Source of the DNA: Candidatus Heimdallarchaeota archaeon
GTDB taxonomy: Archaea > Asgardarchaeota > Heimdallarchaeia > JABLTI01
Assembly (NCBI GenBank): GCA_019056785.1
Contig: DXJV01000029.1
Span: forward strand, 64,001 to 128,000
Direction of reading: 5' to 3'
Length of the DNA: 64,000 bases
The notes below the pieces were generated by a model. The model was not told where the DNA came from and searched no databases. It saw only the letters and a list, made by a program, of their open reading frames with translations. The position numbers and the translations under genes were made by a program. Positions 4,134 to 29,042 of this stretch are shown one piece after another (the first letter of the stretch is position 1; each line of letters opens with the position of its first letter).

Positions 4134-6512
4134 TTGTCTAATGAAAAAAATGAAGAAGTCGAAAAAACAAATTCAGAAGAAAATTTGACAGAAGAACCAG
4201 TAGAAGCAAAAGAAGCAAAAGAACCAAAAGAAGAAGAGATTGAAACAGAAGAAACCAAAGAGGAACTAGAGATACCAGAGATACCACTAGAGGAAAGTTC
4301 AGAAGAAGAGATAATTGAAGTAGCAACACCAACAGAAGAACCCGAGGTAGAAGAACTCCCAAAAGAAGAATACAGCTTTGAAGCAAAGAAAGCTAAACCT
4401 GTCAAAAAGAAGAAGAAAAAAGGGCCGCCATTTCTACTCAGCACTCTCATTGGTTTAGGCGTGGCCTTATTAATTGAGGTGCTATTCTCCATACCACTTT
4501 GGGTTGGAGGTGTTGGCAGACCAGACCTGTTTTATATAGAACTCGTACTTGTACTTATAGCGATGAGCATCCCCGGATTGTTTACCCGAAGCCTTCAAAA
4601 AGGGATCCTTGGGGCGTTCATGATTTTCATTGTAGCATTTGCTGTTCCATTACTACTCACAGTGCTTGGCTTAAAAGCCATTCTCAGTCCCCTCACACCG
4701 CTTTTTGCAAGCACTGACTTTTCGCTTGATGCATTTCAGATATTCAAATCGCTTTTCCCTGCATTAGAAAATTTGCCAATAGCACAAATCCAAAAATGGA
4801 TCTGGATAGTCGACCTTGTGCTAATGTTCATCCTGACAATCTTTGTTGTGGTGATTATAACAGCTTTGATCAAAAGCATCACCAAGAAAAAGAAGAAAGT
4901 TGGGACATGGATTGCTATTCCATTGCTAAGTATTGGCTTGATTATTTTTGCAGTGTTCACACCAATTATCTTCTCTTCAACATATGGTATTATTCAAGCA
5001 AGTACATCATTTCTAGCCGGTGCCACAAAAATGCAGGAAGCCTATGGCGTCTTTGAGGGAACAGGTTCCACGCCAAGCACCCAGGCAATGGAATGGATGC
5101 AAAACAATTTATCAGAAGCCAATTATTGGTTAAATATTTCTCGAGTCAATTATAAAGGATTACAAAATATTGGACTAATTAGAATTGCCGTTCTGGTCTC
5201 AGGACAATATGGACCGTTAATAGAAGCAGGCGATCAGCTGGCCTTAGCAACAATGGCAATGACTGGCATTTTACTGCCACTTTTTACCGGGATTTATGAT
5301 TTAACTCAAAGTTTAGAAAATGCCACGAATGACATGGCGAATTTCGGTTCCTCCTCGAGTGCAACGAGTGCAAAAAATGTTCTCACCCAACTTTCAACTA
5401 AAAGTTTAGAAGATATAGACCAACTGAAAGAGGACATTATTCGCGCTATTGAAGGGCTTGATAAGGCTGAAAATGCCCTCAATATTATTCAGCAACGAAT
5501 TGCCCAACAAGATATACAAGGATCTTTTGATGAAGTTAAAGCAAAGTTAGAGAGCATTAATATTGCCGAACTTCCAGCCAAGGTGGGCGATATCATAAAC
5601 GAGATTCGAGTTCGTTTAGACCAATTCGACGGGCAATTAGAAGGATTTGTAAATTTCATAAGTTATACAGCTGATAACTTGGAACCAACAAAGAAAATCC
5701 TCTGGGCGTCTTATAATACTATTGTGGGAAATGAATATTTAAAACTCAGACGATTTAAGAATGCTGCAGATGCCTTTACCTATGCTTACCAAAATATTTC
5801 AGCAATAAGTGGTATTGCCACATACACACCAACCGGCAATCTTACAAACATTTTTGCAGCAGCTATAACGGAAGATTTCACCTTCCTGTTAAATGACCTT
5901 ATAGGGATAATGTCACCACTCTTACAAGAAGAGATTGCATTCGCACAAACCTACGATGAAATAACAAAAATTATGCGGGCCTTTGCAGCTGAAGCGGATA
6001 TCTCTCAAGTTGATTACTCGTCTCTAAGTACACCACTTGCAACAGCAAACAGCACAGATGTCTATGGTGCAATAGCACAAAGTGCTCTCGATGCTTTCAG
6101 AACCAAACTTCAAAATACAACCTTTGGCTCGATGTTCAACAACATCGGCACACGTTTTGATAAGATTCTCACCGATGACTTTAGACCGCTCGAATTTGGG
6201 ATCATGACGAAGTTCATGGGGACAATTGTTGCATATTATTTAACCAGCTGCGAAAGCTATGCTAACCAATATTTCACAGAAGCAATTAACAACATAACAA
6301 TCGCCGATAATATTATGACAAACGATCTTTTACCCATTCTCAACGTCAATGATCCTCGCTATCTTCAAGACTATTATAATAATTGGTCTCTTGCTCTTGG
6401 AGAACTTAAGATAAAAATGGAGACATACAACACTCCCGCAAACTATAGCAATGGGCTTACTGCAATACAGGATACAATTCTAGTCCTTTATGCAAATGTT
6501 GAAGAAAAATAA
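4134..6512 (+). CDS. Large membrane protein: acidic N-terminus, poly-Lys patch, 5-6 TM, large helical C-terminal domain
   Basis: 792-aa ORF; Glu-rich residues 1-80, KKKKKK, hydrophobic helices to about residue 285, then amphipathic helices. Confidence 0.8.
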   Translation: MSNEKNEEVEKTNSEENLTEEPVEAKEAKEPKEEEIETEETKEELEIPEIPLEESSEEEIIEVATPTEEPEVEELPKEEYSFEAKKAKPVKKKKKKGPPFLLSTLIGLGVALLIEVLFSIPLWVGGVGRPDLFYIELVLVLIAMSIPGLFTRSLQKGILGAFMIFIVAFAVPLLLTVLGLKAILSPLTPLFASTDFSLDAFQIFKSLFPALENLPIAQIQKWIWIVDLVLMFILTIFVVVIITALIKSITKKKKKVGTWIAIPLLSIGLIIFAVFTPIIFSSTYGIIQASTSFLAGATKMQEAYGVFEGTGSTPSTQAMEWMQNNLSEANYWLNISRVNYKGLQNIGLIRIAVLVSGQYGPLIEAGDQLALATMAMTGILLPLFTGIYDLTQSLENATNDMANFGSSSSATSAKNVLTQLSTKSLEDIDQLKEDIIRAIEGLDKAENALNIIQQRIAQQDIQGSFDEVKAKLESINIAELPAKVGDIINEIRVRLDQFDGQLEGFVNFISYTADNLEPTKKILWASYNTIVGNEYLKLRRFKNAADAFTYAYQNISAISGIATYTPTGNLTNIFAAAITEDFTFLLNDLIGIMSPLLQEEIAFAQTYDEITKIMRAFAAEADISQVDYSSLSTPLATANSTDVYGAIAQSALDAFRTKLQNTTFGSMFNNIGTRFDKILTDDFRPLEFGIMTKFMGTIVAYYLTSCESYANQYFTEAINNITIADNIMTNDLLPILNVNDPRYLQDYYNNWSLALGELKIKMETYNTPANYSNGLTAIQDTILVLYANVEEK

Positions 6513-21734: not shown

Positions 21735-22397
21735 ATGCATAAACTCGATAAGACAGATTTAAGGATTTTATCTACACTTCTCGAAGATTCAAGGACAAGT
21801 TATGCAGCTCTTGCACGAGAAACCAACTTGACTATTCCCTCAATTAAAACTAGAATCCAGAAATACATTGATTCCGGCTTAATTGAGAAATTCACCATCA
21901 TCCTAGACACACAAATGATTATGCGAGGAACCTCGATGACATTTTTAATGAAGGTTAAACCGAGCGACTTGGATCAAATTGCAAAAGACATTTACGATAG
22001 CCCGTTTATAGCCAATATGACTATTACTTCAGGTCATTATAATTTACTAATTGTCACTCATCCAATGAGCGATAAAGATAAGCTTGAATTTATTAAGAAA
22101 ATTAACTCCATCCCGGGAGATTCAGTAATGGAACTTGCTTCCTCAATTAACTTGGAAACATTTATGTGCAAACCCATTGAATTGCCAAATACGCCAATCA
22201 ATCTTTTAATCCGTTGTGATTATTGCCATCGAGAATTCTCCGGCGAGATTTTTTCGAAAGCAATTTTAGGAAGAAAGAGGTATTTCTGCAGTCCTTTATG
22301 CCAAGAAAAATACGAGGATCGGGCAGAAAAGTATATCAAAGGCGAATTATTCACTCACCCAGACAAGGAAGCAAAAAAAGCCGAAACGAAGGATTAG
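21735..22397 (+). CDS. Lrp/AsnC family regulator with C-terminal TRASH metal-binding domain
   Basis: LDKTDLRIL...DSRTSYAALA HTH; C-terminal CDYC...YFCSPLC. Confidence 0.9.
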   Translation: MHKLDKTDLRILSTLLEDSRTSYAALARETNLTIPSIKTRIQKYIDSGLIEKFTIILDTQMIMRGTSMTFLMKVKPSDLDQIAKDIYDSPFIANMTITSGHYNLLIVTHPMSDKDKLEFIKKINSIPGDSVMELASSINLETFMCKPIELPNTPINLLIRCDYCHREFSGEIFSKAILGRKRYFCSPLCQEKYEDRAEKYIKGELFTHPDKEAKKAETKD

Positions 22398-23164: not shown

Positions 23165-23288
23165 AAGGAAAAAGAAGCCAAGAAAAAAGAAAGTCGTTTA
23201 GTTGAAAGGATAGGAGGAAAGAGGAGGAAAAAATTCCCCCAGATCAATTTCCAAATCAAATAGAATTTAAAAGGGAAAAAAGAAAGAA

Positions 23289-23555
23289 TTAAGCCTTACT
23301 AATGAAAGGCTTGGCTTTTTCACCATTTGAGCAAGTTGGAATATCTTTAGTGGAACCACAAGTCTTGTCGTGACAAACGAGTTTGTCACCTTCAAGCTCC
23401 ATTAGCTCTCCACAGCAAACAGGCCAATCGATAATTGTGCCATCGTCGCATTTGAACACGAGTTTCATTTCCGCTTCTTGAGCTTTGGTATGTGTTTCTT
23501 TCAATTTTACACCTTTTAAAGCATCTTCGGATATTTCAATTTCTTTGTCAGACAT
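23289..23555 (-). CDS. 88-aa protein: WH2/thymosin-like N-terminus plus Cys-rich desulforedoxin-like domain
   Basis: Start MSDK at ATG 23555 with GGTG about 10 nt upstream; C...PVCCGELM and CHDKTC...IPTC. Confidence 0.7.
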   Translation of the reverse strand: MSDKEIEISEDALKGVKLKETHTKAQEAEMKLVFKCDDGTIIDWPVCCGELMELEGDKLVCHDKTCGSTKDIPTCSNGEKAKPFISKA

Positions 23556-23679
23556 TGGTTTTAACACCATCCTCTTTTGTAGATGGATTTGCTTCCTATT
23601 TAATATTACGTTAGAGACATTCCAAATATAAATTTGATTCTCTAGCCACAGGCTAAAGCAAAAGAAAAGAAAGCAAAGC

Positions 23680-25235: not shown

Positions 25236-27287
25236 TTACGAAGACAAGCGGAGAAATTGGTCCCGCTGATGTTCGGATGCACTTACCAACCAAAAAGTTT
25301 CCCGTAAGAAGGAAATCGCTTCCTCAAGGAGAGCCTGTTTTTGAAGTTTCAAAGCATCCTCAGACAAAGTAGGTTGCTTTTCTTGAATTTTTTGTATTTC
25401 TATAAGGTCAGTTTGAATTGTTTGCTCAAAGGTTTCCATACCCAGATCTTTTGCCAAGTCGATTGCTTCAGTGAGCTCTTCGGAAGCCTCTTTGAAGTTA
25501 TCTTTATAGAGCAAAATTTTCGCAAGCACTTTTTTCGTGTACATCGTTAGTGGTAAAAATTCCAGATCGAGGGAGATAAATAACATGTCGTCTAAGTTTT
25601 GCATTACTTCTTCGAGAATCGTTTGGTCCTCTTGTACCAAATATTTCAATAATAAAACAGTTGTCTTTTCAATCAAAACAAGAGCCGGCGTTAAGGCAGA
25701 GGGGAAGTCCTGCACTTGCTCGTACATATTGGAAAGAAGCTTTTCTGCTTTCAGCAGCTCTTTCTTTTGTATCTGGAACCTAATCCGAGAAATTATTGCT
25801 TGGGCATTTTCTTCCTGGTTGGCATGAATAGAAGCGAAAAGATCGGCACGATTAATGTAGGATTCGGCAAGCGAAAATTTGCCCAGCGCAGTTGAAATTT
25901 CGAACAACCAGTTCAGAATATCAAAATAAATTTCATCCTTCTTGTTCAATTTGGTGCAAATATGTAATGCTTTTTCAAATTCATCAAAAGCAGTTGTTAA
26001 ATTACCGACAATGGCATTTAGCTGCCCCAGTTTGATATGGTCCATTAGGAGTTCTTCTGGAGGGGCGTGGTATTTCACTTTAAACTCCAGGGCATTTGTA
26101 CGTGTTTCCACTGCTTCTTTAAAATTTCCAGCGATGAAATTAACATAAGACAAACCATCAAAGATGGGTGTAAGAAGAATAGTGAAGCTATGATTCTGAG
26201 CGATTTCAAGGGCAGTTTGATAATTGGTCAATGCTTCTGCATACTTTCCTTTTCGCGCCAACAGCTTAGCAATATTAGTTAAGGCAATCACTTTATTGTA
26301 ATCATCAGTTAAATTTGTCGCTTGTTCGAGCAGTTCAAAGAAATATTCCTCTGCTTTGGTAAATTGTTGTTGACTTTCAGAAACAAAAGCAAGATTTTTT
26401 ATGCAATTTACAACGCCAATTTGATCCTTAAGAGCAACATAGGTTTTTCGTGCTTCTAAATAATTTTTCTCTGCATGCTCATAATCTCCCAATGCGGCTT
26501 CCCAATCTCCACGCAAGCAAATGGCTTTTGCCTTCAGTGCTTTGAAATTAAATGATTGGAAGATGACAGAAACCTCTTCAAATAACAATTCTAGCTCCTG
26601 AAAGTTCTTCTGGACGATGGAATAATGGATTAAATCCAAAAGGAATTGAGTCATAAAATAGGGTTCTTCTAATTGTTTTGTTAATTGATAGAGCGTTTTC
26701 GTTTCTTCAATGAGAGCAAGAGTAACAATCTCAGCTGCTTTGACATGCGAAAGGACAAGATAAGCAAGTAAAAAAAAATGATCAAAATCCGGAAGAGAGG
26801 CATTCTTCTCTTGAAACGAATGAATCTTCTCCACCACAGTTTTAAGGTTCTCTTTATTTTTATAACCACTTCTAAACAATATTTGAGCAAGAGCGCCCAA
26901 ACATTCGATGTAGACCATCGGGTCAGAAGTCTCTGAAATCTCTTTCTCAACTTGTTCTAAAAGCTCAATTGCATTTGAGATTTCTCCTTGTTGGGCCTCT
27001 GCCAGAGCAAACCAAACTTTCGCCCCGGCGTTTGTCTGAATTTCTTTGGCAAACTCATTCAAATAAGCATAATCTGCCAGCATATACGCGATTTTTGCTG
27101 CGAGGTAACGTAATTCATGATCGTCTTCTGGAAGGGTAGGGGATTTCGAAATGCGCAGAAATCGTTTGAAAAAAACCTTCGGATCTTTTGAGTCTAACGC
27201 AAGACGATCGAATTGAAATTCAATTGCATCTAGGGACTCTTGAGAGAGACGACTTTCATGCGTTTTAAATGCTGTTGGGAGGACCAC
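25236..27287 (-). CDS. Tetratricopeptide repeat protein
   Basis: Repeated G-Y-A-Y-AL TPR-like helices (GDYEHAEKNY, GKYAEALTNYQTAL, GNFKEA, GNLTTAFDEFEKAL). Confidence 0.85.
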   Translation of the reverse strand: MVLPTAFKTHESRLSQESLDAIEFQFDRLALDSKDPKVFFKRFLRISKSPTLPEDDHELRYLAAKIAYMLADYAYLNEFAKEIQTNAGAKVWFALAEAQQGEISNAIELLEQVEKEISETSDPMVYIECLGALAQILFRSGYKNKENLKTVVEKIHSFQEKNASLPDFDHFFLLAYLVLSHVKAAEIVTLALIEETKTLYQLTKQLEEPYFMTQFLLDLIHYSIVQKNFQELELLFEEVSVIFQSFNFKALKAKAICLRGDWEAALGDYEHAEKNYLEARKTYVALKDQIGVVNCIKNLAFVSESQQQFTKAEEYFFELLEQATNLTDDYNKVIALTNIAKLLARKGKYAEALTNYQTALEIAQNHSFTILLTPIFDGLSYVNFIAGNFKEAVETRTNALEFKVKYHAPPEELLMDHIKLGQLNAIVGNLTTAFDEFEKALHICTKLNKKDEIYFDILNWLFEISTALGKFSLAESYINRADLFASIHANQEENAQAIISRIRFQIQKKELLKAEKLLSNMYEQVQDFPSALTPALVLIEKTTVLLLKYLVQEDQTILEEVMQNLDDMLFISLDLEFLPLTMYTKKVLAKILLYKDNFKEASEELTEAIDLAKDLGMETFEQTIQTDLIEIQKIQEKQPTLSEDALKLQKQALLEEAISFLRETFWLVSASEHQRDQFLRLSS

Positions 27288-27593: not shown

Positions 27594-29042
27594 ATGAGTC
27601 AACATGGAACCAGTAATCTAAATCCGAAACAACTCGAAAAATTAGCCGAAAAAGCAAAAGAACTAGGATATGACAATCTGAGGTTTTTTGTCGATGATAT
27701 TGACATGTTGTTGCGCCCGGCTGTTCTTTTGAAACAAAAAGATATGAAATATTTCGAGTTGGAAAACCTCATTTCCTTGCTAACGAGTAAAAATATTAGC
27801 CTGGGAATGGCGCCCCGGATGTTAAGTATGGTATCAAAATACGCTGAAAGAAATGAAGAATTAGAAGCAGAAAACGCAGAATTAAAGCAATCAAATATAA
27901 CTATGCGAAGTAAATACCAAACTGCTGAAGCCCAGGTAAAAGAATATCAAAAGCAACTTAAAGAACTCTCTGTTGGCGTCCAAGCTGATGCTAAAATCCG
28001 AGAAGAGAATATAAAACTTAGTGAAGAGAATAAGTATCTAAAAATCACAAATGAATCTCTCACCGGAGAACTAAAGAAAACCAAAGAAAAACTCGACGAG
28101 AAAATTGAAGAAGCAAATGATCTTGAAGTTGAAAATAGCCAGTTAGAATTAAAGATTAAAGACCTCCAGAGAGAATTGAAAGAATTGGAGTTGGAATATG
28201 AAGAACTAAAACGAGAAGGTATTGGTACCGATAAGACAAAACGACTCGTTGAGGACTTAATTGATGAAGTAGATGAAGCCTATAGTACTGTAGACGACCC
28301 CTTTAAGAAGGAATTCTTGGCATTTATGGGTGTGGAATTGAGCGAAATCGTTGAGGGACGAACTATTACAAAACAAAAAATTCTCAATCAAATAGCGATT
28401 CATGCACACGAAATTGAAAAAAAATTCGAGCCAAAAATAGCAGCTTTGCAACAAATGCCTGCCCGCAGTGCTACACCTCAACCGGTAATCAAAGAACCAA
28501 GAGAGGTTATGAAGAAAGAAGTTATTCCTGAACCCGTGAAAAAAACCGCTCCAGTTGCAGTTAAAAAAGGACAACCTGCTGAAGCGCCTTCAAAACAAAA
28601 GGCCAAGGAAGAAACCGAAGACCATTATGTGAAACCAAGTGAATTCTTGAAGAAAAAAGGCATCATCGTAAGTAGTGGAAAAGAACCTGCAAAAACAGAA
28701 GAAGCGAAAGAAAAAGGTGAAGAACACGCAGAAAAAACACCTGCAAAACCCGCTACCACTGTTTCACGTTCCAAACGTAAATTTAAGAAGAAAGTGGAAA
28801 TCGACCGCACACCAAGCCCTGAATTGATTCAGGTCTTTGACGTATTTATAAAATATCTTGAAGCTATAACTGACAATAAATCATTTAATGACCTGTGCGA
28901 CAAAATAATCGAGCAACTTTATGAACACATTGGCTCTCCCGGCATGACACAAGTTTACAAAATAAAAAGTAGTGGCGTGAAAAGAAAACAATTATTGATC
29001 GACCTAATAAAACAGTGGAAAGTGAGACTGCCTGACCTCTAA
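27594..29042 (+). CDS. Coiled-coil protein with disordered Lys/Glu/Pro linker and helical C-terminal domain
   Basis: About 125-aa heptad region (residues ~83-208), P/K/E-rich linker, compact C-terminus. Confidence 0.8.
   Translation: MSQHGTSNLNPKQLEKLAEKAKELGYDNLRFFVDDIDMLLRPAVLLKQKDMKYFELENLISLLTSKNISLGMAPRMLSMVSKYAERNEELEAENAELKQSNITMRSKYQTAEAQVKEYQKQLKELSVGVQADAKIREENIKLSEENKYLKITNESLTGELKKTKEKLDEKIEEANDLEVENSQLELKIKDLQRELKELELEYEELKREGIGTDKTKRLVEDLIDEVDEAYSTVDDPFKKEFLAFMGVELSEIVEGRTITKQKILNQIAIHAHEIEKKFEPKIAALQQMPARSATPQPVIKEPREVMKKEVIPEPVKKTAPVAVKKGQPAEAPSKQKAKEETEDHYVKPSEFLKKKGIIVSSGKEPAKTEEAKEKGEEHAEKTPAKPATTVSRSKRKFKKKVEIDRTPSPELIQVFDVFIKYLEAITDNKSFNDLCDKIIEQLYEHIGSPGMTQVYKIKSSGVKRKQLLIDLIKQWKVRLPDL

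Follow-up and report, generated by a model that had tools for sequence, protein, structure and literature searches.

The microprotein gene and its family

The window, by which we mean the whole 64,000-nucleotide stretch of DNA that was analyzed, carries on its minus strand the coding sequence of an 88-amino-acid microprotein, P0001 (23289..23555, stop codon included), with its ATG at 23555-23553 and its stop codon at 23291-23289. The translation given in a first-pass annotation of this locus was exact, beginning with MSDKEIEISEDALKGVKLKETHTKAQ and continuing through C...PVCCGELM and CHDKTC...IPTC. P0001 matched no family in Pfam or NCBIfam. The open reading frame is a real gene, since it has both close and distant homologues. 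A word-indexed search returned 19 proteins with 62 to 78% identity to P0001, nearly all of them 88 amino acids long and from Heimdall or Asgard bins. About 20 more distant homologues (30 to 48% identity) were recovered by a profile search and by an exhaustive HMMER search that covered 1.8 billion representatives. The named sources of family members are Heimdall, Hod, and "Asgard" bins, and these searches found no eukaryotic homologue of the whole protein.

Signals that may serve transcription and translation can be read from the sequence upstream of the gene (23564..23607, minus strand), where a putative AT-rich TATA-like box, TAATATTAAATA, occupies 23607-23596 and a Shine-Dalgarno-like element, GAGGATGGTG, occupies 23573-23564. 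A terminator-like hairpin followed by a T-rich run spans the stop codon (23262..23312, minus strand). The gene is flanked upstream by an M20 peptidase gene on the same strand and on its other side by a convergent HAD hydrolase gene, and given this arrangement it looks like its own transcription unit. Also nearby are genes for a 683-amino-acid TPR-like protein (25236-27287, minus strand), whose place is kept in related genomes, and for a 482-amino-acid coiled-coil protein rich in Lys and Glu (27594-29042, plus strand). An AsnC/Lrp-type HTH regulator gene (21735-22397, plus strand) lies ∼0.9 kb away, at a position kept in two related genomes. Pfam calls only the HTH of this regulator, and its C-terminal C-x2-C-x20-C-x3-C has the spacing of TRASH metal-sensing motifs.

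Alignments and AF2 models divide P0001 into an acidic N-terminal tail (residues 1 to 29; 23469..23555, minus strand) and a Cys/His/Met double-ribbon module composed mostly of beta strands (residues 30 to 88; 23292..23468, minus strand). With the 19-sequence alignment, AF2 gave a mean pLDDT of 80, a helix at residues 16 to 27, and tail values of ∼66 to 82. With a 40-sequence alignment, the ribbon domain scored 73 to 81, and the tail was coil at 47 to 52. The strands of the ribbon module were predicted at 73 to 85 across both alignments. The tail is thus probably flexible, yet the confident helix obtained with the shallower alignment suggests that the tail may not be free, which counts against its being a docking peptide. 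Foldseek against the PDB and a wide VIA-align search produced no fold match better than an E value of 0.5 or a Z score of 4.0. The PriA and Hfq rows among the fold-search results were weak and were set aside as uninformative.

The double ribbon and its homology to copper pumps

The first-pass annotation described the Cys-rich part of the protein as two degenerate desulforedoxin-like units, and our alignments bear this out. Relatives show the full pattern C-x2-C-x7-P-x-[H/C]-C-G-x-x-M twice, and the window's clade lacks the second and eighth ligands. Unit 1 of P0001 (23400..23450, minus strand) reads C36 ... P45-x-C47-C48-G-E-L-M52 and has lost the second Cys of the ancestral CxxC, which is retained in the close homologues P0017, P0018, and P0037. 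Unit 2 (23313..23375, minus strand) reads C61-x4-C66 ... P73-T-C75 ... A81, the ancestral H-C-G-x-x-M having become T-C with loss of the Met. The ligands present are therefore C36, C47, C48, C61, C66, and C75, together with M52, which is nearly invariant across the family. The complete set would be eight Cys/His ligands arranged as four knuckles, along with two Met; P0001 is short of two of the eight ligands and the second Met. Ligand loss has gone further in P0021 and P0023, in which five of the eight ligands, and most Cys, are gone and the tail is retained.

The proposal that this region is a metal-binding domain is supported by homology. By hhalign, the P0001 family matched the C terminus of a Loki-type CopA pump (97.9%; E value of 3.2e-13; 64 columns), which makes it a homologue of the C-terminal domain of these copper pumps and a presumptive metal binder. 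The family profile also matched the C terminus of open frames of ∼960 to 1070 amino acids in many genomes of Asgard family f20, with E values of ∼1e-12 per genome. Two of these frames were examined, and Pfam identified both as copper pumps: each has HMA, E1-E2 ATPase, hydrolase, and YHS domains, and YHS is followed by the ribbon module. Loki-type CopA pumps of ∼965 amino acids with a C-terminal double Cys/His/Met ribbon that has no Pfam family lie at L021:3429-6326 and L022:3110-6013, both on the minus strand. In all, the family profile found matches in 267 of 400 Asgard species genomes. The ribbon module is also common in other Asgard families as tail-less open reading frames of 56 to 87 amino acids.

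Matches to other Cys-rich families were weaker. The desulforedoxin/desulfoferrodoxin N-terminal domain (PF06397; cut-off of 23 bits) matched below threshold in 7 of 40 members, with a best E value of 0.017, and P0025 matched at 0.00093. Profile matches to SRCR domains in the PDB were rejected as chance, being sums of ∼3- to 10-bit matches to repeated Cys-rich units. DUF7130 (PF23458) matched 12 members weakly and, in the window's own genome, picked loci other than the P0001 gene.

One reading of the pump homology is that P0001 serves as a chaperone, buffer, or sensor for copper or zinc. It would then be a soluble counterpart of the pump's C-terminal metal domain, much as CopZ is the soluble counterpart of pump HMA domains. 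Its tail would dock on a pump or regulator, and the likeness to thymosin described below would be a product of chance. The Cys/His/Met ligands, the homology to CopA, and the many tail-less stand-alone copies in other Asgard families all argue for this possibility, as does the AsnC-type regulator, bearing Cys residues in a TRASH-like motif, that lies ∼0.9 kb away in the window's clade. We nevertheless consider it doubtful, given that the ligands decay while the tail stays, that the three P-type ATPases of the window's genome (G000) lack the ribbon domain and the genome holds only one match to the family, and that no pump or metal gene is adjacent to the family gene in any clade examined. An apparent CopA pump beside the LEHVET-type gene P0045 proved to be wrong, as the large upstream open reading frame has no ATPase domains.

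Gene neighborhoods were conserved only within clades. The order in the window's clade is TPR, MazG, M20, P0001, HAD, and the AsnC-type regulator. In a Hod/Thor-labeled clade (L013, L014, and L016; gene at 6001-6270), the homologue and FtsZ share a strand, with the homologue lying 125 to 265 nt downstream. The surrounding block, which is conserved, contains ribosomal protein S12, gelsolin, PrmA, an exosome subunit, RpoL, ribosomal P1, Trm1, FtsJ, and SRP19, with the gelsolin gene ∼5 kb from the homologue. Neighbors in the remaining clades are TFIIB, RNase HII, or a CitMHS transporter, and no linkage to actin, profilin, or gelsolin was conserved across the clades examined. The neighbors differ between clades, and genomic context names no partner. 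The position just downstream of FtsZ, in a ribosomal, exosome, and RNA polymerase block, would suit a generic zinc-ribbon housekeeping factor serving nucleic acid, the ribosome, or the division machinery, with the acidic tail as a regulatory arm. A match to the PriA Cys-rich region profile (E values of 0.016 to 0.045, below the curated cut-off) points the same way. Such a role seems improbable, since the matches are weak, the FtsZ synteny is confined to one clade, the tail is acidic with no basic surface motif, and the family is patchy within its class.

The conserved tail and its likeness to thymosin beta-4

Within the window's clade, the tail is the most conserved part of the protein: in the 19-homologue alignment, invariant positions make up 16 of the first 32 residues, compared to 17 of the remaining 56. 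When distant members are included, E10, L18, T23, and E29 remain nearly invariant. The cross-clade consensus opens with an acidic stretch that includes ...E-L...; a spacer whose length varies comes next, followed by L-E-H-[VT]-E-T-K. The corresponding motif of the window's clade is L-K-[EK]-T-x-T. In P0001 itself it is L18-K-E-T-H-T23 (23487..23504, minus strand), the counterpart of the family's L-E-H-[VT]-E-T and of LKKTET in thymosin, and two close homologues, P0002 and P0003, read LKKT. The first-pass annotation had proposed that the N terminus binds actin and had set its conservation among homologues as a test of that idea, which the proposal survived.

A profile built from the tail matched 24 of 400 Asgard species genomes, all from the window's class, Heimdallarchaeia, and with one copy per genome. 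By family, these were f1 (all 11 genomes plus the window's own), f5 (2 of 12), f6 (9 of 22), and f7 (1 of 2); the same scan found the tail in none of the 135 genomes of f20. Across the 400 genomes, the tail was found on no other domain type and always formed part of a single small open reading frame per genome. A further diverged copy occurs in f32. The diverged homologue at L024:2592-2918 (plus strand), from another Asgard family, has a tail that reads ...KLEHVEP... and lies beside a cysteine desulfurase gene and a gene for a small HTH protein with C-terminal Cys.

If the tail's likeness to thymosin reflects function, P0001 would be a true beta-thymosin/WH2-type binder of G-actin. Its N-terminal helix would lie in the barbed-face cleft, and L-K-E-T would run up the face of actin as LKKT does. 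The metal module would replace the thymosin C-terminal helix and block polymerization, possibly under metal or redox control. We regard this reading as tentative, and the evidence on it is mixed. We searched a tail-only profile (alignment A5) against 177,635 distinct PDB sequences, of which four were returned at E values up to 10. Thymosin beta-4 constructs ranked second and third (4pl8_H, E value of 0.079; 4pl7_A, E value of 0.58), behind the C terminus of the unrelated yeast chaperone Ssb1 (E value of 0.057). With an unrelated protein at rank 1, the thymosin beta-4 score is not significant at the database level, and E values for such charged segments may be optimistic. A whole-PDB E value of only 0.08, equaled by the Ssb1 tail, thus weighs against actin binding. 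The Ssb1 segment in question is its extreme C terminus (...DPSADELRKAEVGLKRVVTKAM), a match that we take to be chance; charged peptides of this kind match readily.

Tests directed at the thymosin segment itself were more favorable. HMMER placed the tail motif onto LKKTET and ...P-x-x-x-E-L... onto ...P-D-M-A-E-I... of thymosin beta-4. The whole-family profile scored 18.9 bits against this segment, a value reached by none of 20,000 composition-preserving shuffles (maximum, 13.8 bits). A profile restricted to the window's clade scored a weak 5.9 bits, which 145 of 20,000 shuffles reached (P of ∼0.007). A profile that excluded this clade, built from sequences to which the first-pass annotation had no access, scored 16.4 bits (0 of 20,000 shuffles; HMMER P of 3.6e-7). 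Since the other clades score above the window's clade, the resemblance strengthens toward the family consensus. We conclude from these sequence comparisons that, at the family level, the tail genuinely resembles the actin-binding half of thymosin beta-4 in an order-specific way, which argues for an actin binder, and that this likeness is insufficient to class P0001 as a thymosin or WH2 member.

The reciprocal comparisons failed. Pfam Thymosin (PF01290; cut-off of 24.8 bits) matched neither P0001, nor 40 family members, nor 10 isolated tails, and Pfam WH2 (PF02205) likewise matched neither P0001, nor the 40 members, nor isolated tails. In six-frame Thymosin scans of the window's genome and five genomes with LEHVET-type genes, the family gene was not among the weak matches, nor was the P0001 gene among those of a six-frame WH2 scan of the window's genome. 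The claim of a thymosin/WH2 motif held in part. The tail is conserved and grows more thymosin-like with distant homologues. Against the claim stand the silence of both Pfam models, a Glu in place of Lys in most clades, the conservation of only one of three helix hydrophobics, and the lack of cross-clade linkage to actin, profilin, or gelsolin genes.

The N-terminal amphipathic helix of thymosin beta-4 makes three hydrophobic contacts with actin, through M6, I9, and F12. In the P0001 family, only the counterpart of I9 or F12 (L13 in P0001) is conserved, the other helix-contact positions being polar or acidic, and the helix that AF2 predicts at the start of the tail is short (residues 10 to 13 or 12 to 15). 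This weakness of the amphipathic helix argues against actin binding, as does the missing linkage to actin genes. The window's clade does carry G at −3 from the motif Leu, as do WH2 and thymosin, and a hydrophobic residue at −5, as is F12 of thymosin; these features, together with LKKT in P0002 and P0003, favor it. The G15-V-K-L18-K-E-T of P0001 fits the G-to-L spacing of WH2, with the hydrophobic residue before G one place off and an acidic residue at position 3, and in other clades the G is absent or differently spaced from the motif Leu. Beyond the motif, ∼6 residues lead to the first strand of the ribbon domain, and there is no thymosin-type C-terminal linker and helix, the elements with which thymosin caps the pointed face of actin.

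Insect thymosin repeats carry LKHTET, and actobindin repeats carry LKHAET. The [VT]-E-T ending of the family motif follows this beta-thymosin style (PMC3284464; PMC2132640). Motif position 2 is Glu in most clades, which counts against an actin binder, because K18E/K19E in thymosin and LEEAET in verprolin abolish actin binding (PMC2132640). In crystal structures, Asgard gelsolins lay LKKT-like motifs on actin, including the acid-containing LVDV of a Loki gelsolin, whose Asp bridges Ca2+ to actin Asp25 (PMC9433394); an LKDV motif is known from Promethearchaeota gelsolins (bioRxiv 10.1101/2025.11.30.690169). The acidic third residue of the P0001 motif could, in the same manner, bridge a cation to actin.

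The window's genome encodes an actin (L001:1483-2619) that Pfam matches at 443 bits and that is ∼60% identical to eukaryotic actins. It keeps SLYASGRTTG, YSVWIGGSIL, and AGEDQPR, which we take to correspond to the WH2-binding cleft of eukaryotic actin, and presumably keeps the acidic patch as well. Within this patch, E27 and D28 are invariant in 15 Asgard actins, so the Glu-bearing motifs are not matched by a compensating change in actin. The conserved cleft, the LKKT-like gelsolin motifs seen on actin (PMC9433394), and the restriction of the tail to Heimdallarchaeia are consistent with an actin-binding tail; its absence from most Asgard genomes, all of which are expected to have actin, weighs against one. 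By eye, the genome's two-domain gelsolin (L028:1105-1818, minus strand) apparently has FKVV between its domains, compared to LKHV, LRRV, or LKDV in other Asgard gelsolins. The proteins reported from Lokiactin coimmunoprecipitation were limited to profilin, gelsolins, and an Arf GTPase, with no P0001-like protein among them (bioRxiv 10.1101/2025.11.30.690169). This absence weighs little against an actin-binding tail, since the cultured Loki species apparently has tail-less forms only.

A proposed docking-tail model and its relation to known systems

In the interpretation that we favor, with a probability of roughly 0.6, P0001 is an adaptor or regulator loaded with metal, in which the double ribbon binds the metal and the conserved tail provides the docking through which the protein acts. 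Residues 30 to 88, as a double ribbon of two CxxC...[H/C]CGxxM units, would most likely hold one or two metal ions, either Zn or Cu(I). Residues 1 to 29 would form a flexible acidic tail with the core L-K-E-T-x-T, a short linear peptide that may dock on another protein. We read the tail as a functional peptide because it is conserved above the domain, is kept despite Cys loss, has low pLDDT, and occurs in one small open reading frame per genome. The single most likely partner would be monomeric actin, bound in the manner of the thymosin beta-4 N-terminal half or WH2, yet we hold this particular assignment to be unlikely, and the odds favor a partner other than actin. We rate a partner in metal trafficking about as highly as actin and other housekeeping roles lower. 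Less probable still is the full combination, in which P0001 would be a stand-alone, metal-regulated, G-actin-binding microprotein with a beta-thymosin/WH2-like tail, confined to Heimdallarchaeia.

To our knowledge, profilins and gelsolins are the only Asgard actin regulators, and the window's class is the one closest to eukaryotes. A thymosin/WH2-type monomer binder, if true, would constitute a third class of regulator in the pre-eukaryotic cytoskeleton and the first thymosin-type actin regulator outside eukaryotes. Such a protein would imply that actin control of this kind had its origin, or an independent origin, before eukaryogenesis, and would tie the regulation of actin to metal or redox state. 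Even with a different partner, the family would bring to light an uncharacterized domain of metal-binding type common to P0001 relatives and archaeal copper pumps, as well as a conserved linear motif in the tail.

Among known systems, the metal domains of P1B pumps and the CopZ chaperones offer one parallel. The P0001 ribbon has a homologue in the final domain of Loki-type CopA, and its stand-alone form resembles the relationship of CopZ to HMA domains. It differs in that its fold is uncharacterized and not HMA, two ligands are lost, a conserved tail is added, and no pump is adjacent. With the desulforedoxin/desulfoferrodoxin N-terminal domain (PF06397) and double zinc ribbons, the family shares the CxxC ... 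CC-G-x-x-M spacing, present twice, although in the P0001 family the first residue of the Cys pair is often His.

The resemblance to beta-thymosins lies in a hexapeptide ∼17 residues from an N terminus that begins M-S-D/E, in the arrangement P-x-x-x-E-[IL]...K-x-K-L-x-x-[TV]-E-T-x-E common to both at the family level, and in the probable flexibility of the tail segment. In contrast to beta-thymosins, the P0001 family is archaeal, matches no PF01290 model, has Glu rather than Lys at motif position 2 in most clades, and carries a metal ribbon domain in place of the C-terminal helix half. The central LKKT motif of Asgard two-domain gelsolins (LRRV, LKHV, and LVDV/LKDV; PMC9433394) comes after a gelsolin domain, which occupies the cleft of actin, whereas the motif of P0001 is preceded only by a short acidic stretch. 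Both are L-x-x-[VT] motifs of Asgard proteins, and the L-K-E-T of P0001 matches the Loki LKDV in charge pattern, position 3 being acidic in each.
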